Below, piece by piece: positions 1 through 62,680 of a stretch of 64,000 nt of DNA. The DNA is from a candidate division WOR-3 bacterium (GTDB taxonomy: Bacteria; Hydrothermota; Tepidihabitantia; SM23-42; JAOAFX01), in assembly GCA_037444665.1 (NCBI GenBank), contig JBBILZ010000003.1, positions 18,073 to 82,072 of the forward strand, in the 5' to 3' direction. The notes below the pieces were generated by a model, which was not told the DNA's origin, made no database searches, and saw only the letters and a program-made list of their open reading frames with translations. The position numbers were made by a program, and so were the translations under genes. Numbering within the stretch: the stretch's first letter is position 1; each line of letters begins with the position of its first letter.

Positions 1-2170
1 TAAGTTTCACTCCAGTTTCACCAAAGAAAGAAAATTTCTCAACATTTAAGAGAAGATTAAAAATGGTGGCATCATCGCAGATTACAGTAGATTTGTCTTT
101 GCTTTTTATCTTTGAATAAAAATTTGATTCCCGCACGAGCATTCCTGTGAGATCAAAATCACCAAAGGCATTGCGGTCTAAATAGACCTCCCTGGGATAC
201 TCACCCGATGCAATCCCCACGCCAATCTGAAATATAGATTGATATAAAGGGGGCAAAGTAGCATAGGTTATCCCCTCAAAATTTATCTTTCTATCCTCGG
301 CTTCTTTAAACCAATCTTTATAATGCTCAATATTCTCCTGGACAAAATTGATTGACTCCCGCACCATTTCCAGACCACAGCGTACCGCATTAAGGGTGCT
401 ACCGGCCGCGGGTATTTTGGTCTTCTGATTCTTCAATTCATAATTATTGCTGGCAAAAAGAATAATCCCGCCATCACCGGTATCTTTTACTGGCAGACCT
501 CCGAATTTTTCAATAATGGTCAGCATGCTTTCCTGAAAAAGATTTCTTATTTCATTTTCCTTTGCGGCATTCTGTAATTTTGTTCCCATCAGAGTAGAAC
601 CTCTTATATCATAGGTCAGAACTGAAATTAAATTTTTATATCGCTGAATATTTAATCCTGAAGGCGCTTCAATTCTGGTAATGGAACTGATATCCTTCTC
701 CACCATTGATACCCTGCCATTCATTGATTCTTCAGCAATATAGCGTATATTTTCAGGTGCTGGCGTCCCGGTGACTTTTGGATAATAATCAACCATCTCT
801 TCTAAAAGAACTGATTTTAAAAATGGTTCAAATATATTTTTCACAACATTCTCAAATCTGTTCATTATTTCAGTAGTATTATAGCGCTCTTTTAAAAAAC
901 CAGGGATGCGCAGGTCATTGAGCTTATTAACAAATTCTTTATTACCCTTTATTTCATTAATCACATCCTTGATGAGGTTCTGAAATGTCTCTTCATCTAT
1001 TGACTTTTTCTCGCCAACCATAAACAGAAGATATGGGTCCCATTCATTTTTCACGATAAATTTTAAAAAATCTGCGGGCTTCAATTTCAATATGCCTTCC
1101 ATTTCACTTTCCTGCCTTTGGTATTCCTGATATTCAGTGCGTAATTTTCTCATATCATAACCAAGGGATATTAAGTTACGCCGTAATTTTTTTATCTGAA
1201 TATCCAGTGCCTCCTCAGTTGAAAAATCACGGGTTATTTTGACCATCTCCTCACCCAGACTACGATTGGTTTCAATAATTTTATTCTCAATCTGATTTAA
1301 TTGATTCTCTAACACCTCTTTTCTCTTTTTTATTTCAGCACATAATCCACGCGCAGCATTTTGAATAACGGTAAAAACCTGTAGCACGCCTTCTTCATCA
1401 GGAAAGAAAAATTGACTGCGCATTACCTCCATAACTTTTTCCCGATTGAATGATTTACCAAGTGATTTAATATTATCAATAAGATTCTGTAACCCTTCGG
1501 TGTAAGTAGTATTTAAAAGAAATTTTAAAATTGCAGAAAATAGAGGCTCGGGCAAACCTTCCTGTAAAATCATCCTTGCCATCATTTTCGTAATTTCTGA
1601 CCGTGTTACTTTAGGGAATAAAGGAATTTTTTCATAAGAATCAACAATCAGACGGTCTTGCACCATAACATTCCTGGTAAGGGAACGCCTTATATAATTG
1701 AACAATTGGTTGATAACGACTCCGAATCTCTCTGCGATCAGTGCTTTGTCATCAATCGTTCTATGGGCAACTTCTTTTGTAAGAATATCTCTTAATAGTT
1801 TGCGATTTACTATCTCAAAAATAAAAATTTTAAAAACATCAGCCTGGGTAAATCTTTTGTAAATTTCAAAAAGGGTATTACTATAACGTTCAAAAAATTC
1901 ATCCCATTTACTGATCATTGATTCATCTTTAAGGAATTTTAAATAATTTGATACAAATTCTTCCTGGAGACTGAAGATTTTTCTCCCTAAAAAGACAAGT
2001 TCTTTACCCTCTTTTTCTTCAAAATGTTTCAGGATTGGGTCATTATTAGAAATCTTTTTCAGCACCAGGAGATAACGCTGGAAATTTAATGAATCGCGAT
2101 AAACTTTATTGAGTTTCTGATAATAGGGTGTCTGGGTAATTAAGATCTCTTCAAATTCATTTCTTAGCAT
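1..2170 (-). CDS. Class III nucleotidyl (adenylate/guanylate) cyclase domain protein; C-terminus cut by window edge
   Basis: No ORF is listed for 1..2156 because one minus-strand frame stays open to the window edge. Hand translation from ATG 2170..2168 gives MLRNEFEEILITQTPYYQKLNKVYRD... Near the edge it reads ...ISVLTYDIRGSTLMGTKLQN...FGGLPVKDTGDGGIILFASNN... These match the (F/Y)xDIxGxT metal-binding strand and KxxGDG motif of class III cyclase catalytic domains. The start overlaps the mltG stop by 14 nt. Confidence 0.6.
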   Translation of the reverse strand, partial: MLRNEFEEILITQTPYYQKLNKVYRDSLNFQRYLLVLKKISNNDPILKHFEEKEGKELVFLGRKIFSLQEEFVSNYLKFLKDESMISKWDEFFERYSNTLFEIYKRFTQADVFKIFIFEIVNRKLLRDILTKEVAHRTIDDKALIAERFGVVINQLFNYIRRSLTRNVMVQDRLIVDSYEKIPLFPKVTRSEITKMMARMILQEGLPEPLFSAILKFLLNTTYTEGLQNLIDNIKSLGKSFNREKVMEVMRSQFFFPDEEGVLQVFTVIQNAARGLCAEIKKRKEVLENQLNQIENKIIETNRSLGEEMVKITRDFSTEEALDIQIKKLRRNLISLGYDMRKLRTEYQEYQRQESEMEGILKLKPADFLKFIVKNEWDPYLLFMVGEKKSIDEETFQNLIKDVINEIKGNKEFVNKLNDLRIPGFLKERYNTTEIMNRFENVVKNIFEPFLKSVLLEEMVDYYPKVTGTPAPENIRYIAEESMNGRVSMVEKDISSITRIEAPSGLNIQRYKNLISVLTYDIRGSTLMGTKLQNAAKENEIRNLFQESMLTIIEKFGGLPVKDTGDGGIILFASNNYELKNQKTKIPAAGSTLNAVRCGLEMVRESINFVQENIEHYKDWFKEAEDRKINFEGITYATLPPLYQSIFQIGVGIASGEYPREVYLDRNAFGDFDLTGMLVRESNFYSKIKSKDKSTVICDDATIFNLLLNVEKFSFFGETGVKL

Positions 2171-15686: not shown

Positions 15687-15689
15687 TCC

Positions 15690-18242
15690 TCAGGTTCCAG
15701 CTTCATAATTCCAGGCACTATGATAAATTTCAACATTTCCATCGGGTATTTCAAATTCGGTCCAGACAATATGGTCTCCATTGATTGTCTGGGGCAATTT
15801 GGAATATACTGGTGAAGAAGTCACCCATTGTGGTGGTAACCATAAGCCTGTCCCGAGGTCACGCCGCATATGTCTGATATTGGATATTCTATCTGATGGC
15901 ACAATCGGCTCCTCAACCCAGACAATATGTAGCCAGTTATTTTTAATTTCAATAGATGGGGTATAGGATTGTTCATAGGAGTTTGATACATTTCTAATTT
16001 CAGCCCACTGTTCACCCTCTTTTTGCCGATAATAGATTTCACCCTGTTTCTGCCAGACAACATGGGGATTATTCTCTGCATCTACAGCAATTGAAGGATA
16101 CTGGCATCGGACCGTCATATAATCAGAGTCCACAAGTTCCCAGGCAACATTCAGCTGATTGGGATTGAGTTTACCATAAAGAATCAAACTGAATGCACCG
16201 TTCGCATAGATATACTTCTCAAAAACAATATGTCCAAAGCCCTGATTATCAATTACGAATGATGGAGTCTCGCAGTAGTATGCCTCCCAGCCCGGCTGGA
16301 CTGGTTCGTAGAGTGCATATTTAGGCCAGGTGTAGTAGTTCTGCCTTCTTGCCCAGAAGAGTGTATCCTTATTCACCCAGACGATATTAGGAACATTATT
16401 ATTATCAAGAGCAATTGCTGGCGATTTTCCCCTGCCTACTGGATATGCTGGCTCCCAGGCCATTGTTCCCAGTTTTGTCTTTGTAAAATAGACATAGCCA
16501 CCAGCCTCATAGATAATATAAAGATTGCCTGCAGCATCAGAGACGATATGCCTTGCATTATTATAAGATGTTGCAGTTGGAACATCACTCTGGACATAAT
16601 TCAAGAGAATATCAGCACGCAAAATCCTATTATCATTCAGGTCAGGATGGATATTCCTTAAGGCAAAATGGGAATGAATCCATTCAGGATAGATTGGTCC
16701 ATGCCAGATGTCATAGAAATTTGTTGATGGATTTGTGAATGCGTCAAACCTTGTATATTCTGGTGGGTCCCAGAAACCACCAGCACTACCATAGCCACGC
16801 CAGTTAGGGTCACCAATTGGTGGCCAGACACCTTCATCATGGCCTGTGAATGTCTTTATACCCATATCAAGGCTGTCAAAGCCAAAAATCGGGTCTGGTG
16901 ATATGGGCCAGTAGGTTCTTTTATTATTAACAGTTGCTGAATCCCATTGATACATCCCGGTTGCATACTCCAATCTTAGTGGACGCTTTCGTCTGGTATT
17001 GGGCCAACCCCATGTAGTATTCCGCTGGGTAGCATGCCAGATTAGAAGACCGGAATCAGGGAAGTTAAATTCATAAGGTGTAAGGCATTGGTGGTTGGCG
17101 ATGAGAAAGGTCTGGGTGTCAGCTGGTGAAATTCCCGGCATCTGGGTCGGTCTGATTCTGAGGACTTCGCCATTATATGTTTCTCTTAACGGCATAATGG
17201 GATAATTTAATTGTGTCTGTGTTATTTCTGTAGGTAAGAGCCAGGGTTGGTTTGTATATCTATCTTTGGTTTCGTAACGCCACTGGGGGTTTAATGGTGA
17301 GGGCATTGCATCTGCCCAGGCATGGAATCGTGCAAAACCACAACCCCAATGTCCACAGAATGAACCTGTATTGTAGTGCTCACCATAGGTATCGGGCCAG
17401 CCACAAGAATGACCATATTCGTGGATATTCATTCCTACATGAGAGGTATGATTCCATGCATCACCGCGAAGTGCCCACTGCACTTTGACATAGACTGGTT
17501 CCCCATTAGCATTTACATCATTAGTAGGAATAGGGGGGTAGCCGCCTGGCCAGAATATTCCACTTCCTCCTCCTGGCCACAGGCAGAGCATTACAACCCA
17601 GACATACTGGCTAGTCCCCGCATACTGTCCAAAATCTATTTCTGGGTCAGCCACCTGTATTGCTGCTTCTGAATACGGACCCCATTTCCATCGTTCTCCG
17701 ATAGCATGTCCAGGAGTATCATAATTTACTTGGAAACAATAATACCATTGACTTCCAGGATCCCAGTGTGCCTGTGGATAGGCATGGATTATTTGTTCTC
17801 CAAATGACATCTCTTTATACCATCGCGTAATGCTAAATTGGGTTGGGCAGTTTATATCCCAGATGCTCTGCCAGAAATCTGGGACCGGTTGAGGAGGTGG
17901 AGGATTACCAAGGTATGTTCCTTGAGTATAGAGCACTACAAGCGTTTCTGGCCCAGCAATCCCTAAAGGTGGTAACTCGCCTATGATTGTGTCTCCATAC
18001 CAGATGAATTCTTGTCTTGTGAGCCAATTAAGATAACTCGTGTCCGTTGTTGCGGACATCCCTACTCCTTTTACCCTATCATAACCATTCTCAACACTGA
18101 ATTCAAATTGAGAAGGGTCAAAGGATAGGGTATATGGACCTTGAGCAAATAGGATGCTCAAAAGTCCGATAAATAGATAGATAGATAGTCTTAGCCATTT
18201 TTCCTCCTGTTTACTGTTTTTGCTTTTTCCCTGATTACTCAA
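15690..18242 (-). CDS. Secreted M6 (immune inhibitor A-like) zinc metalloprotease domain protein
   Basis: TTG start with GGAG upstream, and a signal peptide ...LSIYLFIGLLSILFAQG. The zinc motif NIHEYGHSCGWPDTYGE fits the HExxH..G.PD.Y pattern of the M6 family. There is no C-terminal sorting domain before the TGA at 15692..15690. Confidence 0.65.
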   Translation of the reverse strand: MSNQGKSKNSKQEEKWLRLSIYLFIGLLSILFAQGPYTLSFDPSQFEFSVENGYDRVKGVGMSATTDTSYLNWLTRQEFIWYGDTIIGELPPLGIAGPETLVVLYTQGTYLGNPPPPQPVPDFWQSIWDINCPTQFSITRWYKEMSFGEQIIHAYPQAHWDPGSQWYYCFQVNYDTPGHAIGERWKWGPYSEAAIQVADPEIDFGQYAGTSQYVWVVMLCLWPGGGSGIFWPGGYPPIPTNDVNANGEPVYVKVQWALRGDAWNHTSHVGMNIHEYGHSCGWPDTYGEHYNTGSFCGHWGCGFARFHAWADAMPSPLNPQWRYETKDRYTNQPWLLPTEITQTQLNYPIMPLRETYNGEVLRIRPTQMPGISPADTQTFLIANHQCLTPYEFNFPDSGLLIWHATQRNTTWGWPNTRRKRPLRLEYATGMYQWDSATVNNKRTYWPISPDPIFGFDSLDMGIKTFTGHDEGVWPPIGDPNWRGYGSAGGFWDPPEYTRFDAFTNPSTNFYDIWHGPIYPEWIHSHFALRNIHPDLNDNRILRADILLNYVQSDVPTATSYNNARHIVSDAAGNLYIIYEAGGYVYFTKTKLGTMAWEPAYPVGRGKSPAIALDNNNVPNIVWVNKDTLFWARRQNYYTWPKYALYEPVQPGWEAYYCETPSFVIDNQGFGHIVFEKYIYANGAFSLILYGKLNPNQLNVAWELVDSDYMTVRCQYPSIAVDAENNPHVVWQKQGEIYYRQKEGEQWAEIRNVSNSYEQSYTPSIEIKNNWLHIVWVEEPIVPSDRISNIRHMRRDLGTGLWLPPQWVTSSPVYSKLPQTINGDHIVWTEFEIPDGNVEIYHSAWNYEAGT

Positions 18243-19713: not shown

Positions 19714-19822
19714 GAGCTCATCAAGAGAGGCTGAGGGACGGGCCCTGTGACGCCTCGGCAACCGGTCCTTATTTAAGGATGTCCTGGTGCCAATTCCCGC
19801 CCGAATAGGGAGAGATGGGTGT
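19714..19822 (+). ncRNA. SAM-I (S-box) riboswitch
   Basis: The sequence gCTCATCAAGAGAGGCTGAGGGACGGGCCCTGTGACGCCTCGGCAACC...GGTGCCAATTCCCGCC...GAGAGATGGGTG matches the S-box core (AUCaaGAGaGG.GAGGGA.GGCCC..UGA..CC.GGCAACC ... GGUGCcAAUUCC) and has P1 closure. Confidence 0.9.
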
Positions 19823-19981: not shown

Positions 19982-21178
19982 ATGAAAAAAACTATTGATG
20001 AGATAAATGAAAAGATAAAAAAGGGTAAAGCAGTAGTCTTTACTGCTGAAGAGATTATTGAGGTTGCAAAAGAACAGGGGTTAAAAAACACAGCAAAAAA
20101 GGTTGATGTTGTTACAACCGGTACATTTGGTCCAATGTGTTCTTCTGGAGCATTTATCAATCTTGGGCATACCCGTCCAAGAATGAGAATTACCAGGGCA
20201 TGGCTCAATGATGTTGAGGTATTCTGTGGCATTGCCGCAGTTGACCTTTATATTGGTGCTACACAGATACCTGATAATGACCCGGCAAATAAAGAGCATC
20301 CTGGTAGATTCAGATATGGTGGTGGCCATTTGATTGAAGATCTGGTAGCAGGAAAAAAGATAAAGATAAAGGCACTCTCTTACGGCACTGATTGTTATCC
20401 TAAAAAAGAATTGACCGGTGAATTTACAATAAAGGATATCAATGATGCATTCCTGTTTAATCCGCGAAATTGCTACCAGAATTATAATGTGGCGGTCAAT
20501 CTTGGTAGAGAGAAAATTTATACTTATTTGGGTATCCTCAAACCGAATCTTGGCAATGCAAATTTCTGCTCTGCTGGACAATTGTCACCACTATTAAATG
20601 ACCCTGAGTATCTAACAATTGGCATTGGAACACGCATCTTCCTGGGCGGTGGTATTGGATACATTGCATGGCACGGCACACAGCACGACCCTTCTGTAGC
20701 AAGAAATAAAAATAGTGTGCCCAAAAGTGGTTCAGGAACCATTGCCGTGATTGGCGATTTAAAGACGATGAAACCCGAATGGCTCAGAGGAACATCAATC
20801 ATTGGTTATGGCGTAAGTTTGACCGTAGGCATTGGCATTCCGATTCCGATTCTTAATGAAGAAATCTTAAAATTTACCTGTGTAAAAGATAGCGATATAG
20901 TTGCGCCTGTTGTTGATTATTCATACGATTATCCGAATCTGACTGGTAGGGTCATTGCTGAAATAGATTATGCAACATTGAAATCCGGTAAGATACGCAT
21001 CGGAAATAAGACTGTACCAACATTTCCCATTTCCAGTTATCCAAAGGCGCAGAAAATAAGCAGGATTTTAAAGAATTGGCTCCAGACAGGTAAATTCCTG
21101 CTTACCGAGCCGGTTCAAAGACTGCCTGGTAAGGAATCAAGGATAAAATTCAGACCATTCCAGGGAAGGTATAAATAA
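19982..21178 (+). CDS. COG1900/DUF39 homocysteine biosynthesis protein (MA1821-like)
   Basis: N-terminus KTIDEINEKIKKGKAVVFTAEEIIEV...KVDVVTTGTFGPMCSSGAFINLGH is the characteristic DUF39 signature. The gene sits behind a SAM riboswitch. Confidence 0.8.
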   Translation: MKKTIDEINEKIKKGKAVVFTAEEIIEVAKEQGLKNTAKKVDVVTTGTFGPMCSSGAFINLGHTRPRMRITRAWLNDVEVFCGIAAVDLYIGATQIPDNDPANKEHPGRFRYGGGHLIEDLVAGKKIKIKALSYGTDCYPKKELTGEFTIKDINDAFLFNPRNCYQNYNVAVNLGREKIYTYLGILKPNLGNANFCSAGQLSPLLNDPEYLTIGIGTRIFLGGGIGYIAWHGTQHDPSVARNKNSVPKSGSGTIAVIGDLKTMKPEWLRGTSIIGYGVSLTVGIGIPIPILNEEILKFTCVKDSDIVAPVVDYSYDYPNLTGRVIAEIDYATLKSGKIRIGNKTVPTFPISSYPKAQKISRILKNWLQTGKFLLTEPVQRLPGKESRIKFRPFQGRYK

Positions 21179-45890: not shown

Positions 45891-46937
45891 CTAACCATTG
45901 TGATAATATCTTCTCTTTATCCACAATGCGACATTGACCAGCATTATTAGAACTGGAACTTCAAGAAGGGGTCCAATAACCGTCGCAAATGCCTGACCAG
46001 AACTAATGCCGAAGATTGCAATAGCAACTGCTATTGCCAATTCAAAATCATTACTTGAGGCTGTGAAAGAAACTGCGGTTGCCTGCCCATAATTAGCACC
46101 CAGTTTGTAGACTATAAAGAATGTCACGAACCACATAATCACAAAATACAATACAAGAGGTAGCGCAATCCTTAAAACATGTAAGGGCAACTGGATAATA
46201 TATTCCCCCTTAAGCGAAAACATAACGATAATTGTGAATAACAAGGCGATGAAAGTAACGGGACTTATTTTTGGAATAAACTTGTTTTCATACCACATCC
46301 TGCCCTTTGATTTTATCAACGAAAACCTGGTGATTATACCACCTATAAAGGGTATTCCTAAGTAGATAAAAACCGTCTTTGCTGCTTCCAACATAGAAAC
46401 GCTTACATTCAGGCCCTTGACAAGTCCTAACCAGTTAAGGAGCGTAGGGATAAAAATATAGATGTAAACAGCATAAAAAAGAACCTGAAAGACAGCATTA
46501 AAAGCAACCAGTCCTACGGCGAGTTCTCTGTCTCCTTGTGCGAGCTCATTCCATACAATTACCATGGCAATACATCGTGCAAGTCCGACCAAAATTACGC
46601 CGATCATATATTCGGGGTAACTACGTAAGAAAATAATTGCCAGCACGAACATAAGAACCGGACCAATAATCCAGTTTTGAAGTAGAGAAATGAAAAGTAA
46701 CTTCTTACTCTTGAAGACCTTATCCATCTCCTCATATTTGACCTTCGCCAATGGTGGATACATCATCAATATTAGACCAATCGCAATTGGAATAGAGGTT
46801 GCTCCAATTTGTAGACTGGTGATAAATTTTGTTACAATCGGTAAAGTATAACCAATCCCAACCCCTGCTGCCATTGCGAGAAATATCCACAGGGTCAAGA
46901 ATCTGTCCAGTAAAGAGAGTTTAATCTTTTGTTCCAT
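45891..46937 (-). CDS. acr3: ACR3-family arsenite efflux transporter
   Basis: [24 protein letters not shown]..., 10 TM helices, and the conserved ...RCIAMV... Cys region. It lies in an ars context. Confidence 0.85.
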
Positions 46938-46952
46938 TTAACCTCCTAATCT

Positions 46953-48119
46953 CTAAAATAGAAATCCATAAATCCAACCCACGATTGAAGAAAGGATTAT
47001 CACCAAAAATATATAAGTGATGGTCTTTTTTACACCCATAATACTGCTGATGACGAGCATACTGGGTAGACTCACTGCAGGACCAGCAAGCAATAATGCT
47101 AATGCCGGTCCTTTTCCCATACCACTGCCTAAAAGCCCCTGTAAAATGGGCACTTCTGTAAGGGTTGCAAAATACATAAATGCACCAGAGACCGCAGCAA
47201 GGAGGTTTGCCCAGAATGAATTGCCACCAACAAGACTGGCAATAAAACTTGAAGGAATAATGCCACGGTCTGTATTCGGTCTGCCCAGCAAAAATCCAGC
47301 AACCATGACTCCAGCAAACAATAATGGCAAAATCTGACGGGCAAATGTCCAGGTGGAAAAGACCCAGTCCTTTCTTTCATCCGCATTGAACCACTTAAAT
47401 ATTATGACAAACATTATTACCAAAAAGATTAGAACAAGATACCAGTGGATATTATAGACCGCATTCCAGAATCCAACTGGTTCTTTTGGCTTTGCCCAGG
47501 CAGCAAAGATTAATATTAAAATCAGAGAAAGGAAGTATAAAAGATTCTGTCCCAGTGTGCGGCCATTTGCAATGCCTTCTTCTGTTTCAAAAGAATCTTC
47601 AGATTCTACTTTTTTGTCCTTGAATATCAAGGACATCAATAGACCGATGATGACTGAAAAGACAACTGCTCCGAGTGCACGGGCAATGCCTAATTCTGCA
47701 CCTAAAATACGTGCAGTGAGAATTATTGCCAGGACATTTATTGCCGGACCAGAATATAAAAATGCAGTTGCCGGACCAATGCCTGCACCGCGTATGTATA
47801 TACCTGCAAACATTGGTAAGACTGTGCAGGAGCAGACCGCAAGGATTGTTCCGGAGACCGAGGCAATACCGTATGCAAGAACTTTGTTTGCTTTTGCACC
47901 AAAATATTTTATCACTGCCTCTTTTGAGATAAAATTACTTATTGCACCAGCAATAAAGAATGCTGGAATAAGACAGAAGAGCACATGTTCTCTCGCATAC
48001 TCCTGAATCATAAATACTGCCTCAAGGATTGCGGACTGGATGCGCAAACCATCAAAAGGGACAAAATAGAGCACCAAAAATACTGCGATAAAAATTATAA
48101 GTCTGGTTCGTTCTTTCAA
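46953..48119 (-). CDS. ArsP-like permease (DUF318/UPF0718)
   Basis: Polytopic membrane protein with the ...VSGTILAVCSCTVLPMFAG... Cys-x-Cys motif typical of this permease family. Adjacent to acr3 and arsR. Confidence 0.7.
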   Translation of the reverse strand: MKERTRLIIFIAVFLVLYFVPFDGLRIQSAILEAVFMIQEYAREHVLFCLIPAFFIAGAISNFISKEAVIKYFGAKANKVLAYGIASVSGTILAVCSCTVLPMFAGIYIRGAGIGPATAFLYSGPAINVLAIILTARILGAELGIARALGAVVFSVIIGLLMSLIFKDKKVESEDSFETEEGIANGRTLGQNLLYFLSLILILIFAAWAKPKEPVGFWNAVYNIHWYLVLIFLVIMFVIIFKWFNADERKDWVFSTWTFARQILPLLFAGVMVAGFLLGRPNTDRGIIPSSFIASLVGGNSFWANLLAAVSGAFMYFATLTEVPILQGLLGSGMGKGPALALLLAGPAVSLPSMLVISSIMGVKKTITYIFLVIILSSIVGWIYGFLF

Positions 48120-49141: not shown

Positions 49142-50461
49142 ATGAGTGAACAGGCTAAAATTTACTGGCAGAATATTCTTGGATATATTAAGGACAAAAT
49201 CCATCCCCAGTCGTTCGCGACCTGGTTTCATCAGAGCAAGGGGATTGAAATTAAGGATGATGTCCTGCTTGTTGAGATGCCAACCAATTTTCATATTGAT
49301 TGGATTACTATGCACTATTCAAAAATACTTGAAGAGGCGGCAATTTCTGTGAATGGCAACAATCTGAGATTATCTTTTAAAGCAGCAAACCAGGAAACAA
49401 ATCGTCCCGCGCTGAAAAAGAAGAGATTTATCCTTTCCCATGATCTTACAAAACTTCAGGAACGATATACTTTTGAAAATTTTGTGGTAGGAAAGAATAA
49501 CGAGCTTGCGCATGCTGCGGCACTGGCTGTTGCCGAAGCACCCGGAGAGGCTTATAATCCACTCTTCTTATATGGTGGGGTGGGTCTGGGAAAGACCCAT
49601 TTGATGCAAGCAATCGGCAATTTTATTCACAAACAACATAAAAATTTAAATGTTTACTATACCCAGGCTGAAAATATAATGAATGAACTTATTGATGCTA
49701 TTCAGAAAAAGGACCAGTTGTCTTTTAAAAAGAAATATCGGAATAAAGACATTCTGCTCCTTGATGATATTCAATTTATTTATGGTAAAGAACGTCTTCA
49801 AGATGAAATATTCCATACCTTTGATTATCTATATACCCAGGGAAAGCAGATTGTTTTAACTTCAGACCGTCCACCAAAAGAACTTTCTACGCTGGAAGAG
49901 CGTCTGACTTCAAGATTTCAGGGAGGATTGGTTGTAGACCTTCAAGCTCCTGACCTTGAAACAAGAATAGCCATTTTACAAAAAAAGGCAGAGATTGAAA
50001 ATGTTAAACTTCCTGGTAATGTTGCTTATTATATTGCATCAAGGGTTAAATCTAATATTCGTGAATTAGAAGGATGTTTGATAAGGCTCCTGGCTATCTC
50101 CTCTCTATCAGGGCAAGAAATGAATGAAGCCCTGGCTGAAGAAGCACTAAAAGACCTTTTAGGCAACGGATACAAAGTTGATAAAGAAAAAATAATAAAG
50201 GTTGTCTGTAATGAATTTGGTTTTTCAGAGAATGACCTTAAAGGAAACAGAAGAACCCAGAGGCTTGCCCTTGGTAGACAGGTAGCAATGTATTTGATGC
50301 GTAATTTTCTCAATCTGTCTCTGGCAGAAATTGGTCAAATTTTTGGTGGAAAAGACCACAGCACAGTAATACATGCGATTGAAAAAATAAATCATCTTAA
50401 AGAAACGAACATAGATTTTTCTCGTATTTTAGAGAGGATAAATACAAGGATAAATGGTTGA
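49142..50461 (+). CDS. dnaA: Chromosomal replication initiator DnaA
   Basis: Walker A GGVGLGKTHL, LLLDDIQF, the sensor/box VII motifs, and the C-terminal DNA-binding ...GGKDHSTVIHA. Confidence 0.97.
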   Translation: MSEQAKIYWQNILGYIKDKIHPQSFATWFHQSKGIEIKDDVLLVEMPTNFHIDWITMHYSKILEEAAISVNGNNLRLSFKAANQETNRPALKKKRFILSHDLTKLQERYTFENFVVGKNNELAHAAALAVAEAPGEAYNPLFLYGGVGLGKTHLMQAIGNFIHKQHKNLNVYYTQAENIMNELIDAIQKKDQLSFKKKYRNKDILLLDDIQFIYGKERLQDEIFHTFDYLYTQGKQIVLTSDRPPKELSTLEERLTSRFQGGLVVDLQAPDLETRIAILQKKAEIENVKLPGNVAYYIASRVKSNIRELEGCLIRLLAISSLSGQEMNEALAEEALKDLLGNGYKVDKEKIIKVVCNEFGFSENDLKGNRRTQRLALGRQVAMYLMRNFLNLSLAEIGQIFGGKDHSTVIHAIEKINHLKETNIDFSRILERINTRING

Positions 50462-50656: not shown

Positions 50657-51751
50657 ATGGAATTTAAAATCAACAAAATTAATTTTGAAAAAGTGCTGAA
50701 TAGCATAGTAAAATTGATTCCTCCCAAGAGTACACATACTGTTCTTCAAAATATTATACTTGAAGCAAAGAATAATAATCTAAACATAGAAGGAACTGAC
50801 CTTGATATATTTATAAAAAAATCACTGGCTTGTGATATTAAAAAAGAAGGAAAGGCATTATTGCCAGGAAAAAAACTTCTTGAGATTGCACGAGAGGCAA
50901 ATGTTGATGAAATTTCATTCAAATTAAAAGAGTTAAATTTGCAAATCAATGCAGGTAATGCTCAATTTAATATACCTGCCCTTGATTATCAAGAGTTTCC
51001 AGAGATTCCTTCTTTTCCTTCCAAGAAATGGCTGGCATTGAGCATAAATGAAATAAACGAGATGGCAAATGCAACAATCTTTATGGTTTCCAAAGAACTG
51101 AGCAGGCGTGCAATGAATGGGGTTTTATTGCAGATAAAAGAGGATTGGTTGAATATGGTAACAACTGATGGAGCTCGTCTGGCACTCTTTAAAAAAGAAC
51201 AGAAAGGAGAAGCAGGAGAACTGATACTACCACCAAAGATATTTGACCTGCTGGATATAAACCAACCTGAAGAGCAAATAGAGTTCTACCTTGATGAAAG
51301 AATTGTCGGTCTTAAATTTGGCAGCACCACAATCATTGCCCGTCTTATTGAAGGGCCATATCCAAATTATGAAGCAGTTATACCAAAGGTCTTTCCAGGG
51401 ACCTGCACAGTTGAAAAGAGTCTGCTTGAGGGTGCTTTAAAAAGAGTTTCTCTCGTTTCTAGTCCAACATTGAAGAGCGTTAAATTTGATTTTTCAAAAG
51501 AAAACTTAATGTTATCTGCATCTTCGCCTGATAGTGGTGAGGCAAAAGAGCCTGTGGTCTGTAATTATGAAGGAGAAAAAATGGCGGTCTGGTATAATGC
51601 GGCATACCTCTTAGAGATTATGAGACATATAAGTTCTGATGATATTGTGTTCCAGTTAACATCTCCATCATCGGCATCATTGATAAAACAAAAAGAAGAT
51701 GATAAATTAATATATTTGTTAATGCCTTTAAGGATTGATTCCTATGAATAA
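50657..51751 (+). CDS. dnaN: DNA polymerase III beta sliding clamp
   Basis: Position after dnaA, 364 aa. Typical motifs ...LQNILLEA..., ATDGHRLA-like TTDGARLA, and ...LMPLRI. Confidence 0.93.
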   Translation: MEFKINKINFEKVLNSIVKLIPPKSTHTVLQNIILEAKNNNLNIEGTDLDIFIKKSLACDIKKEGKALLPGKKLLEIAREANVDEISFKLKELNLQINAGNAQFNIPALDYQEFPEIPSFPSKKWLALSINEINEMANATIFMVSKELSRRAMNGVLLQIKEDWLNMVTTDGARLALFKKEQKGEAGELILPPKIFDLLDINQPEEQIEFYLDERIVGLKFGSTTIIARLIEGPYPNYEAVIPKVFPGTCTVEKSLLEGALKRVSLVSSPTLKSVKFDFSKENLMLSASSPDSGEAKEPVVCNYEGEKMAVWYNAAYLLEIMRHISSDDIVFQLTSPSSASLIKQKEDDKLIYLLMPLRIDSYE

Positions 51752-52328: not shown

Positions 52329-54819
52329 ATATGTGCGAGGGGTTAAATAGATTTTTTGGCAGAAACTCATATCTTGGTTTCATGATAAAAATAAGTTTCT
52401 GCGAGTATGGCGATTGCCATATTATGGTCTTTGAAAATTTATTAGAATTGGCGGAAGGAACGTGGGTTCAAGTTACTAAGAGCGCATGTGAGGATGCCTT
52501 GGCATTCAGAGGCGATGAAGGGCGTGGTAGGCTGCGATAAGCGTCGGTGAGGAGCGAACATCCTTTGACCCGGCGATGCCCGAATGGGAAAACCCATCCT
52601 GTTGAAAAACAGGATATCCTGCTCGCAAGGACAGGAGGCTAACCAGGGGAAGTGAAACATCTCAGTACCCTGAGGAAGAGATATTCCGAAAGTAGCGGCG
52701 AGCGAAATCGGAACAGCCCAAACCGATCTGCATTTTAAAGCGGACAGGCGTTGTGCAGGCGGTGTAGCGAGGTCCAGCTGAACCTGATCTGTCCTGAAGG
52801 TTGTGAAGTTACAAAACCTTGTAATAGCCGAATCTCACAGGAAAGTAGAGCCATAGATGGTGATAGCCCAGTAGGCGAAATTACAAAGGTCTTCACTGGC
52901 TGGATTCTCAAGTAGCACGGGATAGGTTATCCTGTGTGAATCTGCCCAAACCACTGGGTAAGGCTAAATACTTCTGAATGACCGATAGTGCACCAGTACC
53001 GTAAGGGAAAGGTGAAAAGAACCCCTGGCGGGGAGTGAAATAGAACCTGAAACCATGCGCTTACAATCAGCAGGAGTTTAACTCCTACCTGAGCAATCGG
53101 GTGGGAAATGTTGAATGACTGCGTGCCTTTTGCATAATGAGCCGGCGAGTTATCCTAACCTGCAAGCTTAATTCTGGCATGAAAGTGTCGGAAGCAAGCG
53201 TAGGGAAACCAAGTCCAAATAGGGCGTATTAGTAGGTTGGGGTATTACCCGAAACCCGGTGAGCTACCCATGGTCAGGATGAAATTCCGGTGACACGGAA
53301 TGGAGGTCCGAACCGGTGACTGTTGAAATAGTCTCGGATGAACTGTGGGTCGGAGTGAAAGGCTAACCAAACCGGGTGATAGCTGGTTCTCCTCGAAATG
53401 CCTCTAGGGGCAGTCTTGGATGTTCAATAATAGTGGTAGAGCACTGAATAGAAGAGAACCCTTCGGGGTTCAAATCTAATCAAACTCCGAATGCTATTAT
53501 TTATAAGTCCAGGAAAGAGGCGGTGGGGGCTAAGCTTCATCGCCGAAAGGGGAATAACCCAGACCACCGGCTAAGGTCCCTAAGAGTTGGTTAAGTGGGA
53601 AAGGATGTGAGATGACTTAAACATCTGGGATGTTGGCTTAGAGGCAGCCATCATTTAAAGAGTGCGTAACAGCTCACCAGCCGAGTTATCTTGCGCCGAA
53701 AATTTATCGGGGCTCAAACCAACCACCGAAGCTGTGGCTTCCTGACCATTATGGTCAGGAGGGGTAGAGGAGCGTTCCATTGTAGGTTGAAGTTCTGTTG
53801 CGAAACAGAATCGACGAAATGGAAGTGATTATGCCGGCACGAGTAGCGATAATCCAGGTGAAAAACCTGGACACCGTAAGCCCAAGGGTTCCTGGGCAAG
53901 GTTAATCCGCCCAGGGTTAGTCGGATCCTTAGCCGAGGCCGAAAGGCGTAGGTGATGGGAAAGCCGTCAACATTCGGCTACCATCTGTAGTTTCGTTATA
54001 CCTATGGGGTGACGCTGATGGTAGAGGCGGTTCCTGTGTTGGAATACAGGATCCAAATACTTCATGGGAATTTCCTGGCAAATCCGGAAGTTCTTAACCA
54101 TGGAGTATGATGGGGAGGCCCAAAAGGCCATAAACCCGTCTCGAGATTCAGCCGAGAAAAACCTCTATGGAAGAAATTACGGGTGTCCGTACCGGAAACG
54201 AACACACGTGGGCGAGGTGAATATCCACAGGTGCTCGGGTGAACCCTTGTTAAGGAACTCGGCAATCTAACCCCGTAACTTCGGGATAAGGGGTTCCCGT
54301 TATCTGCTATGATGAATAGTGAATAACGGGACGCAGTGAAAGGGCTCTCGCGACTGTTTAACAAAAACACAGGTCTCTGCTAAGCCGTAAGGCAAAGTAT
54401 AGGGACTGACACCTGCCCGGTGCCAGAAGGTTAAAGAAGGAAGTTATTTTGGCGAAAGTCAGGAGAAGCTTCCGACTGAAGCCCTGGTAAACGGCGGCCG
54501 TAACTCTAACGGTCCTAAGGTAGCGAAATTCCTTGGCGGGTAAGTTCCGTCCTGCACGAATGGTGTAACGACGAGAGCGCTGTCTCAACAAGGAGCCCGG
54601 CGAAACTGTAGTGGCGGTGAAGATGCCGCCTACCCACGGTAGGACAAAAAGACCCCGTGAACCTTTACTGCAGCTTGCTATTGAATCTTTGCGGAGCATG
54701 TGTAGCATAGGTGGGAGGCTTTGAAGTTCCGACGCTAGTCGGAATGGAGCCGTCAGTGAAATACCACCCTTGTTCTGTCGGAGGTTCTAATTCTACCTTT
54801 GCAGGGTGGAAGACAGTGG

Positions 54820-55808
<989 letters not shown>

Positions 55809-55972
55809 CCCAAAATGTAACGGAGGTGCCCAAAGGTTCCCTCAGTGCGGTCGGTAATCGCACGGTGAGTGTAAGGGCATAAGGGAGCCTGACTGTGAGG
55901 CCGACAGGCCGAGCAGGCACGAAAGTGGGGCCTAATGATCCGGTGGTGCTGTGTGGAAAGGCCATCGCTCAG

Positions 55973-56008
<36 letters not shown>

Positions 56009-56034
56009 GGCCCGAGAGTTCACATCGACGGCCC

Positions 56035-56075
<41 letters not shown>

Positions 56076-56121
56076 GACAAGGTCCCAAGGGTCGGTCTGT
56101 TCGCCCGTTAAAGCGGTACGT

Positions 56122-56154
<33 letters not shown>

Positions 56155-56625
56155 ACTCTATCCACCGTGGGCGTAGGAGACTTGAGAGGAGCTGTCCTTA
56201 GTACGAGAGGACCAGGATGGACAGACCTCTGGTGCACGAGTTGTCGTGCCAACGGCATAGCTCGGTAGCCAAGTCTGGAAGGGATAACCGCTGAAAGCAA
56301 CTAAGTGGGAAACCCGCCTCAAGATAAGGTCTCCCGTTCAATTCAGGGGCAACTCTGAATTGACCTAAAGACTACCAGTAGACTACTGGTTTGATAGGCT
56401 ACAGGTGTAAGTGCAGTAATGCATTGAGCCGAGTAGTACTAATCAGTCGTGCGACTTGAACTTCCTTCCGCCATCTTCCTCTTAAGCACTAAATCCGAAT
56501 ATCGAAATACGAAACAATCTCAAAATTCTAAATTTAAATATTCAAAACGCTGTTTAAGATTTTGAATTTGGGTAATTAGAAATTGTTTCGGATTTAGGAT
56601 TTCGTGCTTAGAATTTCAAAAGATT

Positions 56626-56741
<116 letters not shown>

Positions 56742-56857
56742 TTTTTTTATTTAATGAATGTCAAGAACAAATAATAATCTTTTCCATAAACCCAAAAAAA
56801 TTTTCCCCCTTGACACAAAAGAATTTTTTAATATTATATATATAATAAAGGAGGAAT

Positions 56858-57892
56858 ATGAAATATTTAAAAATTATTGGGCTTTCTATATTAATATTAT
56901 CTTTGTTTAAATTTTCAAGTGGAGCAGAACGTGTTGTTGTTGCTGAAATGGTAACTGACGAGGGCTGAACCGCCTGTGGTGCAGCCAGTGGTACACTGGC
57001 ACAGATCGTTCTCAACCATCCAGGCAGGGTTGCAGCAGTTGATGTCCATTATCCAGCAGGTGATTCATTCTTTTTGCAGGAAGGATATGATCGTATCCAT
57101 TATTATCCACCACCATATTATGGAATGTATATTACACCATGGCTCTGGTATGATGGGAATCAACACGGTGAAATGGACTATACACAATGGGAATCAAAGA
57201 TTATTACAAGAATGAATCAACCAGCACCAGTAACCATATATCTTGATGGTGAATATTCACCGAGCAATAATTCAGGAACCATTTATGCTACATTCAAAAA
57301 CGATTCAAGCGCAACAATCACTGGCAGGGTAATAATTGTTATTACTGAAGATAGTCTATTCTATCCAGCACCCAATGGCACTATTTGGCATTCTAATGTG
57401 CCCCGTGATTATCTTCCTGATAATAATGGTACAAATGTATCAATTCCTGCGGGTGATTCAATAACAATCACTATGCCCTTTACAACCCATCCTAACTGGA
57501 ATAAAACACACTGTAAAATAAAGACCTGGGTCCAGAATGATATAATGCAATCAGATTCAACAAAAGAGGTCTGGCAGGGTGCATTGGTAAATTTGCTGGA
57601 ACTTGGTATCAATGAAGAATATCAGGAGAATACTAAGAGAATGAATATTCAGGTATACCCTAATCCTGTCAGACGCAATGGTTCTGTTCAATTTAATTTT
57701 GGTATCGGAACAAGCTATGAGATTTCAATTTTTGACTGCACAGGAAGGCAGATGGTCAAAATTAAAGGAAGTGCAGATATAATAAATTGGAATCTGAGAG
57801 ATGGCCATGGAATCTCAGTTAACCCTGGTGTATATTTTTACAAAATTCAATCCGAGAAATTTTTCACAAGTGGTAAGATTGTAATTGAATAA
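56858..57892 (+). CDS. Candidate selenoprotein: secreted thioredoxin-fold-like (Omp28-related-like) protein with UxxC and a T9SS C-terminal domain; TGA codon 37 at 56966..56968
   Basis: AAAGGAGG RBS, ATG 56858. Codon-by-codon translation gives MKYLKIIGLSILILSLFKFSSGAERVVVAEMVTDEG-TGA-TACGAASGTLAQIVLNHPGRVAAVDVHYPAGDSFF-L(=track start 57074)QEGYDR... There is no other stop. It ends ...PGVYFYKIQSEKFFTSGKIVIE. Confidence 0.7.
56984..57000 (+). promoter_or_regulatory. SECIS-like hairpin 15 nt downstream of TGA 56966..56968
   Basis: gccagtg-gta-cactggc forms a perfect 7-bp stem with a G-first loop. Confidence 0.6.
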
Positions 57893-57948
57893 AAAGGAGG
57901 TGCAAAATAAAGAGTATATTATTTGTTAAGAATGAAAAAGGAGGAACT

Positions 57949-59865
57949 ATGAGAATATTTTTAGCAACAATAATTGTGTTGAGCATTGCGAATGCAGGTA
58001 ACTGGTTGATTAATGGTGACTTTGAACAGGATTTATCTATGGGCTGGACCGCTACCCAGGGCGGCTCATATATCTATATCGACCGTGCCACGACCTATGA
58101 AACAGACCCTGATTATGAATTGCGCACAGAAAAAGGTTCTGGAAATGGGTTCGCTAATGTTTCACAAACCATTGATATTACTACACCCAGTGAATTCAAT
58201 TTTTCAATAAAGGCAAAACTCTATGCGTATGATAATAATGCAGATACACTTACCTATGCAGGTGCTGCAGTAAGAATAATTTATCGTAATACTTCAGGAA
58301 CTTTTTTAGGCGAAACCAAAATCTGTCAGTTTACTACACCCTGTCCATGGCAGAATACATCAACCTGCCATTTAATAATTGCGAGTGATTCATTGTGGCA
58401 TAATTATTCATTTAATCTCCAGGCCGAACTCGGTAATCTGCCCGGTGTCAATCCAGCAAATGTTAAAAAGGTTGAGATTGCTTTCTATGATACAACTGCC
58501 CATACTTGTTGAGGGGCTTCACAATTGGCGAAGGTCTTCGCCGATGATACCAAATTAAATTATACTGGAACGCAATTATATCTCAGTTTTATCAAATCCA
58601 AGGTCTACGATGCGGGTGGCAATAATAATGGTAGGCTTGACCCTGGAGAAACAGCGAACATCACTACATTTTTGAAAAATATTGGTGGTGCTAATTTTAC
58701 GAACTTAAACTCTACGCTCTCCACAACGAGTCCTTATATCACTGTTACAGATAATTCTGGTTATTTCGGCACAATTCTTATAGATAGCACAAAAGAGAAT
58801 ATTTCAGACCCTTATACAATTAGTGTGAGTTCTTCAACACCACAGGGACACACTGCACAATTCCGGCTCATCACCTCTCAAGGCACCTTTGTCGATACTT
58901 TTTTCTTTAATCTTGTGGTCGGCTCTTATCATTACTTAGTGTGGAATCCTGACCCAACATCATCACCAGGACAAACAATGCATAATATTCTTACTACATT
59001 GGGCTACAGTGGATTATATTCTACGACTCTTCCTACAACCGACCTTGGTATGTATCGGGCAATCCTTGTGTGTGTGGGAATCTTTCCGAACAATTATGTA
59101 ATAAGTGCATCAAGCCCAGAGGCTACGGCATTGGTAAATTATGCAAACAGTGGTGGTCGGCTCTATCTTGAAGGTGGTGATGTCTGGTATTATGACCCAT
59201 TGGTTGGTGGATATGATTTTTGTCCACTCTTCGGAATAAATGCTACTGCAGATGGTTCTTCTGATTTAGGACCCATTCAGGGACAGACCGGGACATTCAC
59301 AAATCAGATGTATTTCAATTATGCAGGAGAAAATAATTATATGGACTGGATAAGTCCTGGTGGAACCGGTGCCTTTTTGATATTCAAAGATGAAGACCAG
59401 GGGTATGATTGTGCTGTTGCCCGTGATGCAGAAACATATCGCACAGTAGGAACTTCATTTGAACTTGGAAATCTGATTGATGGTTCTGGTGTTTCAACCC
59501 GTGCTGCATTGATTGATTCAATACTACATTTCTTTGGCATCTTCCAGTTTCCGGTGGCTGAGGAAAATAAACGAAGTGATATTGCAATAAACAAACTGAT
59601 GGTCTATCCGAATCCATTCCATAAAAATCTTACGATTAAATCCGAAATTCGAAATCCGAAATCCGAAACATCATTGAGAATTTACGATGCCACGGGCAGA
59701 TTGGTGAAATCCTTTTTACTTCCTACTTCTCACTTCTCACTTCTTACTTCTGTGGAGTGGAACGGAACAGATGATTCAGGTCGTAAACTTCCATCTGGTG
59801 TATATTTTGTCCATCTGGAAGCAGGCAATCTAAAATATATTGACAAGGTGATAAAGATTGAGTAA
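57949..59865 (+). CDS. Candidate selenoprotein: secreted jelly-roll (CBM4/9-like) + large domain + T9SS C-terminal domain protein; in-frame TGA at 58510..58512
   Basis: ORFs 57949..58512 (signal peptide, no sorting domain) and 58525..59865 (sorting domain, no signal peptide, TTG 'start') are in the same frame. The junction reads ...VEIAFYDTTAHTC-TGA-GASQLAKVFADDTKLNY. The AKVFADD strand looks like the missing last strand of the NGDFE-type jelly roll. Confidence 0.6.
58527..58542 (+). promoter_or_regulatory. SECIS-like hairpin 14 nt downstream of TGA 58510..58512
   Basis: ggcgaa-ggtc-ttcgcc, or a 7-bp ggcgaag/cttcgcc stem. As I recall it, the GGUC apical loop matches the loop of the E. coli fdhF SECIS. 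Confidence 0.55.
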
Positions 59866-59967
59866 AATAAAAATAATAGGTTAGCCATTCTAAAAAAATG
59901 AAATTAAATCAAACAACGACAATTTCAGGGTGGCTAAACTATTGCAAATAAAACAAAAGGAGGTTCT

Positions 59968-60984
59968 ATGAGGTTAAGCATTTTTAGGTTTATGCTTTTG
60001 CTGGGCGTACTTATTTTGAGCATATCCAGTGCAGCACAGCGCGTGGTGCTATGTGAGGAATTTTATCAGGAGACCTGACCGAGCTGTCCTGCAGCCAGCA
60101 GTGTGCTGGACAATATTGTTATCCAATATTCAACCAGGATTGCACCAATAGAGATGCATTTGAGTTCAGGTTATCCACTCTATTCTGCAGAAGCTTATGC
60201 CAGAATGCAGTATTATCCAAGTTCAAACTGGTATACACCGAATCTCATTCTTGATGGAACGCCGCGCGGCAGTGGTTATACAAGCTGGCAATCCTATATA
60301 GTGGCAAGGATGAATCAGGCTTCACCAATGCGACTCTTAATGTGGGGAACTTATGGTTCTGGTTCAGGAACCATTAATGCGCGTTTTTATAATGATTCAA
60401 CTGCATCGGTAACTGCTACAGTCTATTTTGTTATTACTGAAGATAGTTGTTATTATGCTGCACCCAATGGTGACCAGTGGCACAATCATGTAGCAAGAGA
60501 CTATGTGCCTAATCAGATTGGCCAGCAGGTGACGATTCCTTCAGGAGATTCTGCAACAGTAGCTCAGTATTTTACAATCCAGTATGGATGGAATGTAAAT
60601 AGGTGTAATATTATCACCTGGATACAGAATAGTTCTACAAGAGAGGTATATCAAGCAGGAAAGATCAAAGTAACCGACCTTACCGCGGTGGAAGAGAACG
60701 AGCAGGATAATCTGGTGAAAAAAGAGATATTATCACTGCCTAACCCCTGTGTAAATGGAACAAAATTCCAGTTCAATATTGGTGCAGGAACACAATGGAA
60801 AATTATAATATTTGATGTTCTGGGTAGACCGATACAGCAGATTGATGGAATCGGTAATGCTCAAAATCAAATTGTAGAATGGAATCTCAAGGATAATAAA
60901 GGTAATCGTGTAAAGTCCGGTATCTATTTCTATCGGTTTATCAGTGCGGAATTGAATAGCACAGGAAAGATTGTTGTAAGATAA
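59968..60984 (+). CDS. Candidate selenoprotein: paralog of 56858..57892 with UxxC and a T9SS C-terminal domain; TGA codon 37 at 60076..60078
   Basis: AAAGGAGG RBS, ATG 59968. Translation gives MRLSIFRFMLLLGVLILSISSAAQRVVLCEEFYQET-TGA-PSCPAASS-V(=track start 60103)LDNIVIQY... It ends ...SGIYFYRFISAELNSTGKIVVR. Confidence 0.7.
60095..60109 (+). promoter_or_regulatory. SECIS-like hairpin 16 nt downstream of TGA 60076..60078
   Basis: ccagca-gtg-tgctgg. It sits at the position homologous to the 56984..57000 hairpin and differs by two compensatory pair changes. Confidence 0.6.
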
Positions 60985-61000
60985 AAAATATCTGCTTAAT

Positions 61001-61066
61001 AAAACGGCGTGGAGAACCCACGCCGTTTTATTTTTCAACTGTTTTCTGCCTGGCAGAAAACAGTTG
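61001..61066 (+). terminator. Two tandem strong hairpins between the converging protein operon and the 16S 3' end
   Basis: The first is aaaacggcgtgg-agaac-ccacgccgtttt followed by attttt (61001-61035). The second is caactgttttctgc-ctg-gcagaaaacagttg followed by attttt (61036-61066). Confidence 0.7.
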
Positions 61067-61113
61067 ATTTTTAAAATAAAAAAACTCCAGGGTATTGGGT
61101 CAATTTTTCTTTG

Positions 61114-62680
<1,567 letters not shown>

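Follow-up and report, generated by a model that had tools for sequence, protein, structure and literature searches.

A candidate cell-surface selenoprotein family with an in-frame UGA inside a jelly-roll domain in WOR-3 bacteria

A single gene for a 638-residue cell-surface selenoprotein very probably occupies positions 57949-59865 (forward strand) of a 64,000-nt stretch of contig JBBILZ010000003.1 from a WOR-3 bacterium; this stretch is referred to here as the window, and all coordinates are positions within it. On this reading, to which we assign a probability of about 0.92, an internal UGA specifies selenocysteine (Sec) by means of a selenocysteine insertion sequence (SECIS) and SelB, and the complete gene comprises 637 sense codons, Sec188, and a terminal TAA in one continuous frame. 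The original prediction, made from the sequence alone, had joined an open reading frame (ORF) with a signal peptide to an ORF with a sorting domain through this TGA, a proposal that has since gained support from relatives (sequence comparison, covariation, and nearby Sec genes) and from a structure model. As had been noted, the two ORFs share a frame: the first (57949..58512; 187 aa) opens with an ATG preceded by AAGGAGG, the second (58525..59865; 446 aa) opens with a TTG, and they are separated by only the TGA at 58510-58512 and the four sense codons GGG GCT TCA CAA. A TGT codon directly precedes the TGA, such that Cys187 and Sec188 would be adjacent residues (58507..58512). An alternative genetic code, in which TGA would encode Trp or Gly, was ruled out, as TGA genuinely terminates several ordinary genes of the window; the standard code is therefore in use.

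The same TGA is found throughout the family. A total of 80 loci were taken from the GTDB species-representative genomes, comprising metagenome-assembled genomes (MAGs) of WOR-3, Stahlbacteria, Cloacimonadota, and Latescibacterota, and these numerous loci are not phylogenetically independent. Loci L015 and L019, both with the TGA junction, stem from the complete WOR-3 chromosomes CP070686.1 and CP070664.1. Matches to the hairpin core GC-RRR-GGTC-YYY-GC (see below) in the fetched loci defined a set of 47 genes from 38 loci, and the codon located 15 nt 5' of this core was TGA in all 47. The junction codon was likewise TGA in every one of 28 reconstructed orthologs, which share a layout of signal peptide, ~185 codons, TGA, ~445 codons, and sorting domain, for a total of ~630-660 codons. 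Both halves are 36-80% identical at the protein level across relatives and are under strong purifying selection. Homologs that end at this point as separate genes had been a concern from the outset, yet the related genes proved not to be separate genes ending there and all carry the same in-frame TGA. The residue immediately before Sec is more variable, being Cys in 39 of the 47 genes, Gly in five, and Asp in three; one clade possesses C-U-S-G-H-C at the site, while others have S-G-U-G or D-D-U-G. A His is frequently located no more than three residues from Sec (His185 in the window protein), and the cysteine of a CPW motif (Cys132) is kept in 25 of the 28 orthologs. Finally, in several loci the gene is found in tandem with its own jelly-roll selenoprotein paralogs, with three copies in each of loci L069 and L030, and two copies in each of L024, L026, L018, and L015.

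Protein databases hold this gene in two pieces. With the fused sequence as query, more than 100 homologs of ~444 aa came up, and all 12 of those that were read begin at or just past (M/L/V)AKVFADD. Conversely, the N-terminal part alone yielded 72 homologs, almost all of them ~187 aa long (range 155-230). When 33 of these were aligned with the N-terminal ORF of the window, 31 were seen to terminate at the junction column with ...C and one with ...T, while one reads two residues further (...CGS). Since the starts and ends of homologs coincide with the junction, almost all database entries cut the gene at one and the same point. Only one match, P0015 (L001 102-1988, from JGI 3300021514), was full-length, with C-W-G at the junction. 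Its Trp was discarded as a possible residue at the Sec position because the underlying DNA reads TGA; this “full-length” protein is spurious and apparently stems from gene calling with a genetic code in which TGA means Trp. Consequences for annotation are considerable: hundreds of database entries, derived from MAGs of WOR-3, Stahlbacteria, Cloacimonadota, and Latescibacterota, are cut at the TGA and need to be merged; where the entries bear a name, the first part is listed as “hypothetical protein” and the second as “T9SS type A sorting domain-containing protein” (T9SS, type IX secretion system).

Just downstream of the TGA, the coding sequence folds into a hairpin with the hallmarks of a bacterial SECIS. 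The element seen originally, ggcgaa-GGTC-ttcgcc, begins 14 nt past the TGA, and its stem extends to 8 bp, giving the hairpin UUGGCGAA-GGUC-UUCGCCGA at 58525-58544 (forward strand), with the GGUC loop at 58533-58536. The loop is located 20 nt after the UGA (+24..27), and the minimum free energy (MFE) of the fold is -14.2 kcal/mol. The published model of the bacterial SECIS (bSECIS; PMC13188914) calls for a loop of 3-9 nt, an upper stem of 4-16 bp, a G within loop positions 1-2, a UGA-to-loop distance of 16-37 nt, and an MFE of no more than -7.5 kcal/mol. All of these values are matched here by a 4-nt loop, a stem of 6-8 bp, GG at the loop start, 20-nt spacing, and -14.2 kcal/mol. Moreover, the hairpin is present in register in 28/28 aligned orthologs, and its GGUC loop is invariant. 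Within the 6-bp core, 99.4% of stem cells are paired across the 28 orthologs, relative to 23-63% when the partners are slid against one another; four of the six core pairs have changed on both sides, and none of 500 shuffles reached the observed values. Compensatory variants of the stem include GCGAA/UUCGC, GCGAG/CUCGC, GCGGA/UCCGC, and GCAAG/CUUGC. The idea that this hairpin is a SECIS at the correct distance from its UGA is thus borne out by the bSECIS values, the covariation, and the invariant loop.

The same nucleotides encode protein. In the window the hairpin specifies L-A-K-V-F-A-D, and changes in the stem force paired residue swaps in the encoded strand, as seen in AKVFA, ARVLA, and AEVSA (i.e., K..F, R..L, and E..S). 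This is a case of dual coding, in which a SECIS overlaps a structurally required beta strand and RNA pairing visibly drives paired substitutions in the protein. In practical terms, GC-RRR-GGUC-YYY-GC situated 15 nt past a TGA provides a simple diagnostic for the family. The closest well-known counterpart is the SECIS of Escherichia coli fdhF, whose apex, A-[GGUC]-U, is identical to the one found here (the fdhF sequence was confirmed against 5,419 E. coli genomes). In both genes an in-frame UGA is followed by a hairpin within the coding region, and decoding presumably proceeds via SelB; the fdhF loop lies at +22..25, as compared with +24..27 here. Unlike fdhF, the hairpin of the present gene has a fully paired stem of 6-8 bp and no bulged U. 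The proteins are also unrelated: Sec resides here in a secreted beta-sandwich, whereas in fdhF it is a Mo/W ligand of a cytoplasmic enzyme.

The TGA falls within a predicted structural domain rather than at its edge. Residues encoded by 58000..58563 form a beta jelly-roll head similar to that of carbohydrate-binding modules (CBMs), running from an NGDFE motif to AKVFADDTKLNY, and this domain spans the TGA. An AlphaFold2 (AF2) model was made for the ortholog P0015 with an alignment that included distant homologs spanning the junction; an alignment limited to the N-terminal part had left the segment after the TGA unmodelled, and the spanning homologs resolved it. The model has a predicted local distance difference test (pLDDT) score of 77-97 over residues 20-320 (ten-residue means), and of 83-97 for the head. 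It places a strand at residues 168-178, a turn at 179-184 (Y-N-C-U-G-A), and a further strand at 185-198 (ELAKVFADNVSLSY), after which the next domain begins. The post-TGA residues thus complete the jelly roll in the P0015 model, with the TGA just before the last strand, as had been surmised. Likewise, 310 homologs of the head domain were identified when 1.84 billion representative proteins were searched with a profile, most of them cut at ~187 aa. The rare untruncated ones are distant, and those that were read possess a variable loop followed by the same last strand, x-V-(L/F/W/Y)-A-D-(D/N)-x-S-L, with the sole exception of P0244, in which all resemblance is lost before the junction; among the others, P0220 has Ala at the Sec column and keeps the flanking C....C. 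Because the AF2 model and the distant non-Sec homologs both put the post-TGA segment in the final strand, stopping at the TGA would remove that strand from the fold.

Foldseek matched the head to CBM4, CBM16, and CBM22 modules, with hits to 3k4z, 4xup, and 2zez and template modelling (TM) scores of at most 0.60, normalised to the target. Modules of the CBM4/9/16/22 type share with it the jelly-roll fold, the NGDFE first strand, and the xVxxDDxxL last strand. Unlike these modules, the head falls short of the Pfam CBM_4_9 (PF02018) gathering cut-off (15.2 bits vs. 25.9), and any ligand binding is putative. The original description of a “carbohydrate-binding” jelly roll therefore stands as regards the fold, for which AF2 and Foldseek agree, but not as regards an activity; the label is a fold assignment. 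To our knowledge, no CBM containing Sec has been described.

Either side of the head are the features of an exported protein, divided between the two ORFs in the manner originally suggested. A putative signal peptide for the Sec translocon (MRIFLATIIVLSIANAG; 57949..57999) was read by eye, and a similar hydrophobic N-terminus ending in ANA-G was likewise recognized by eye in 28/28 reconstructed orthologs. Downstream of the head are an immunoglobulin (Ig)-like beta-sandwich domain with a GNNNGRLDPGE motif (58564..58908; residues 204-316 of the P0015 model, pLDDT ~90), a conserved domain with a YLEGGDVWYYDP motif (58909..59601), and a T9SS type A C-terminal sorting domain (59602..59862), all on the forward strand. 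The sorting domain scores above the cut-offs of both PF18962 (42.1 bits vs. 27; residues 552-635) and TIGR04183 (43.2 vs. 23). The YLEGGDVWYYDP-motif domain is strongly conserved among relatives, and a WOR-3 C25 peptidase has a C-terminal counterpart with 49% identity to it; the domain has a pLDDT below 50 in the P0015 model and no sequence match in the PDB. The signal peptide expected of T9SS cargo is present only when the two ORFs are read as one; the 446-aa ORF by itself has none.

The C-terminal ~430 residues, which include the Ig-like, conserved, and sorting domains, are 49-56% identical to the C-termini of WOR-3 C25 peptidases. The Ig-like domain recurs in the C25 peptidase relatives, and subtilase-type proteins carry the same C-terminal part. 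WOR-3 T9SS cargo of the C25 (gingipain-family) and subtilase types thus has these ~430 residues in common with the present protein; in the former the head is a peptidase, whereas here it is a Sec-containing jelly roll. To judge from sequence, the C-terminal part looks like a shared “stalk” that bears interchangeable heads. Taken as a whole, the domain set implies that the protein would be exported and displayed at the cell surface.

Several observations weigh against a selenoprotein. When the window hairpin is considered by itself, its stability is not significant (z = -1.6), as 16 of 200 shuffles fold equally well; the significance of the hairpin consequently comes from its relatives. No Cys partner of Sec is invariant. 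No Cys-form homolog was detected among the 72 and 310 homologs of the two large searches, and the Sec column is occupied by Ala, Asp, Pro, or Gly in those distant, non-truncated homologs that could be placed in an alignment, such that the classical interchange of Sec and Cys is not seen in this family. Finally, neither tRNA-Sec, selA, nor selB was found in the 64-kb window (selD was not searched for), and a Logan contig that extends the window ~10 kb leftward likewise holds no selA, selB, or tRNA-Sec. It follows that Sec decoding in the window's own genome is inferred from its relatives.

If the UGA is translated, these same absences could be accommodated by SECIS-independent read-through, in which a near-cognate tRNA (for Trp, Cys, or Arg) reads the UGA and the hairpin merely aids read-through or pausing: homologs with Cys are missing, distant ones tolerate Ala, Asp, or Pro, and no Sec machinery is apparent in or near the window. 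There is nonetheless only a slender chance that this explanation is correct. The hairpin fits the bSECIS in its loop size, its G-G/U loop start, and its spacing, and it copies the SelB-binding apex of fdhF. Furthermore, the Sec machinery is encoded close to the gene cluster in relatives. Specifically, ARAGORN detected tRNA-Sec upstream of the jelly-roll gene, at a distance of 2-7 kb, in four lineages (L020, L025, L026, and L031). In L026 (569-7809), the order is selA - selB - tRNA-Sec - Omp28-like UxxC gene - jelly-roll Sec gene - second jelly-roll paralog; here, selA scores 439 bits (TIGR00474, cut-off 268) and selB 316 bits (TIGR00475, cut-off 242). By tblastn with the L026 proteins, selB was also found in L020 and L031 and selA in L031, bringing selB to three loci and selA to two; L025 gave no match to either gene. 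An additional locus, L048, with selA-selB beside a C25 paralog, was left out because a masked run of N fuses its ORFs. Finally, the two genes that flank the jelly-roll gene have their UxxC motif in thioredoxin-like surroundings, and both give weak matches to a selenoprotein family that is already known.

Less probable still is an arrangement of two separate genes, with a small periplasmic jelly-roll protein ending at the TGA and a T9SS cargo protein starting at TTG 58525. Gene callers divide the locus in just this way, as do the named NCBI, JGI, and UniRef records, and a weak purine run, GAGGGG, does stand 8 nt 5' of the TTG. The prediction had described a TTG start without a ribosome-binding site; the TTG is as described, but the absence of a binding site was slightly overstated. 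This run is nevertheless made up of a Gly codon and the first base of an Ala codon, and it is not conserved in other clades. At the site matching the window's TTG, 7 of the 47 genes have ATG or TTG and none has GTG, with CTG, ACG, GAG, and others in the remainder, so that 40 of 47 relatives have no ATG, GTG, or TTG with which to start. A signal peptide belonging to the downstream ORF, another possibility considered at the outset, is absent, which is at odds with the secretion sorting domain that this ORF carries; the upstream ORF, for its part, would be without the last strand of its fold. In addition, all 47 genes have TGA as the supposed stop, yet they differ in the codon with which they truly end (TAA in 23, TAG in 17, and TGA in six, with one gene running off its contig). 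That the TGA was created by a sequencing or assembly error, or marks a pseudogene, is refuted by its recurrence across dozens of independent assemblies whose proteins are 36-80% identical, with both halves under strong purifying selection, and may be set aside as hardly conceivable.

In the selenoprotein reading, then, the UGA at 58510-58512 would be decoded as selenocysteine by SelB together with Sec-tRNA(Sec), recruited by the hairpin at 58525-58544. The product would be a 638-residue precursor consisting of a signal peptide, the jelly-roll head, the Ig-like domain, the conserved domain, and the T9SS sorting domain, with Cys187-Sec188 in the turn that precedes the last strand of the head. 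Termination at the UGA would instead yield a 187-residue jelly roll lacking that strand. Export would presumably proceed through the Sec translocon, followed by secretion and surface attachment via the T9SS, as suggested by the domain set.

The role of the Sec residue invites comparison with known vicinal Cys-Sec proteins. Mammalian thioredoxin reductase (TrxR), for example, possesses a GCUG motif with adjacent Cys and Sec, and motifs of this kind form selenylsulfides or bind soft metals. The prediction had likened the Cys-Sec pair to the C-U dyad of TrxR; the local resemblance is real, but Cys is present in only 39/47 genes, and the site is an internal turn and not a C-terminal tail. Specifically, the TrxR-type center is an invariant pair on the flexible C-terminal tail of a pyridine-nucleotide disulfide oxidoreductase, whereas the site here lies in an internal beta-hairpin turn of a protein with no oxidoreductase domain. 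Other vicinal Cys-Sec families listed in the 2026 catalogue are SaoL, HgcA, MbdU, and KCU-star (PMC13188914, Table 1). A local C-U-G sequence is common to TrxR, these four families, and the present protein, but sequence and fold are otherwise unrelated, Cys is missing from 8/47 members here, and the site sits inside a T9SS cargo protein, in a hairpin turn internal to its CBM-like domain.

With low confidence, we suggest that Sec, exposed on its hairpin turn, could serve as a redox-active selenylsulfide or selenol, or as a soft-metal site. It might also, with equally low confidence, be serviced by, or work together with, the co-encoded and secreted thioredoxin-fold UxxC selenoproteins. It is tempting to go further, and to envisage a lectin-like head at the cell surface with an exposed Cys-Sec (or His/Cys/Sec) center, obligately dependent on selenium and co-encoded with UxxC selenoproteins that are probably co-secreted with it by the T9SS. 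Head and UxxC proteins together would form an extracellular selenol redox relay or a system for the capture of metals or metalloids, with no cysteine equivalent, and the UGA would in addition make display of the head conditional on selenium supply. This fuller scenario is speculative, and we regard it as rather unlikely to hold in all of its parts.

The jelly-roll gene represents a new selenoprotein family, although the recoding mechanism is canonical. The family is taken to be new because it was not encountered in any of the resources consulted. Among the selenoprotein models of NCBIfam (June 2026) no match to the jelly-roll family was found, and only the sorting domain gave matches. Nor did term searches show the family among the 119 families of the 2026 catalogue (PMC13188914) or in the BSepDB and deep-Sep papers. 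A literature search on selenocysteine in combination with WOR-3, T9SS, or sorting domain returned nothing relevant. According to the 2026 review, most characterised selenoproteins have a thioredoxin-like fold (PMC13188914). Against that background, the present family is unusual for its CBM-like, non-thioredoxin fold, its secretion by the T9SS, the apparent lack of a Cys form, and its clustering with secreted selenoproteins, as well as for the proximity of tRNA-Sec in four relatives and of selB or selA-selB in three. The gene cluster and its nearness to tRNA-Sec point to selenium-dependent surface chemistry in uncultivated anaerobes.

Two genes for Omp28-related, T9SS-sorted selenoproteins flank the jelly-roll gene on the same strand. 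The upstream neighbor, at 56858..57892, has the motif G-U-T-A-C, with its TGA at 56966-56968 and a hairpin at 56984-57000; the downstream neighbor, at 59968..60984, has T-U-P-S-C, with its TGA at 60076-60078 and a hairpin at about 60095-60109. The flanking genes conform to the motif E-(G/T/S)-U-x-x-C, and TGA is present in 27/27 relatives. They possess a conserved, covarying hairpin of their own, GCCAGYG-GNA-CRCUGGC, which encodes A-S-G-T-L-A. In 19 of 28 cases an Omp28-related gene is found less than 4 kb from the jelly-roll gene, most often immediately upstream of it, and four of the nine exceptions are without flanking sequence.

The closest catalogued family to the flanking genes is NCBIfam NF045500 (Omp28-related selenoprotein; “hypothetical protein GOS_C”, UxxC), with which they have in common the UxxC motif, an Omp28-like domain, and an extracytoplasmic location. 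Their scores of 41.1 and 66.6 bits are well below the cut-off of 200, and they would at best be a distant subfamily of NF045500, one that, given these scores of 41-67 bits, may be uncatalogued. The jelly-roll gene itself does not match NF045500. The earlier placement of the jelly-roll gene between two UxxC paralogs, with three TGA-containing genes in one block between 5S and 16S, was confirmed.

The rRNA genes around this block (52466-62680) are unlinked and convergent, with 23S-5S on the forward strand and 16S on the reverse strand. The three selenoprotein genes occupy the interval from 5S to 16S, and no tRNA genes are located near the block. The 5S gene is at 56626-56742 (+) and the 16S gene at 61114-62680 (-). 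A group I intron (Rfam, 90.8 bits) interrupts the 23S gene, which spans 52466-56463 (+), with intron features at 54841-55131 and 55167-55805 that include an ORF for a LAGLIDADG homing endonuclease (PF03161, E = 7e-51). Because dnaA (49142-50461) and dnaN (50657-51751) are found just upstream of the 23S gene, the rRNA/selenoprotein block may lie near the replication origin. About 10 kb upstream of the selenoprotein genes, at 45891-48119 (-), are two adjoining genes, one encoding an SBF-family transporter (PF01758) and the other an ArsP-type permease (PF03773).

Elsewhere in the window, a second “split” T9SS cargo gene was noted at 14814-18242 (-), where an ORF of 850 aa that begins like a signal peptide and contains the metalloprotease motif HEYGH ends at TGA 15692-15690. 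One codon (GGA) past this TGA, an in-frame ATG opens a 290-aa ORF that carries a T9SS sorting domain and no signal peptide. No SECIS-like hairpin was detected after this TGA, where the fold is no better than that of shuffles and the junction is a low-complexity linker; the split could reflect simple read-through, a nonsense mutation of recent origin, or a pair of genes. Finally, an S-adenosylmethionine (SAM) riboswitch at 19715-19821 (Rfam RF00162, 78 bits) is located upstream of a homocysteine-biosynthesis gene at 19982-21178 (PF01837).

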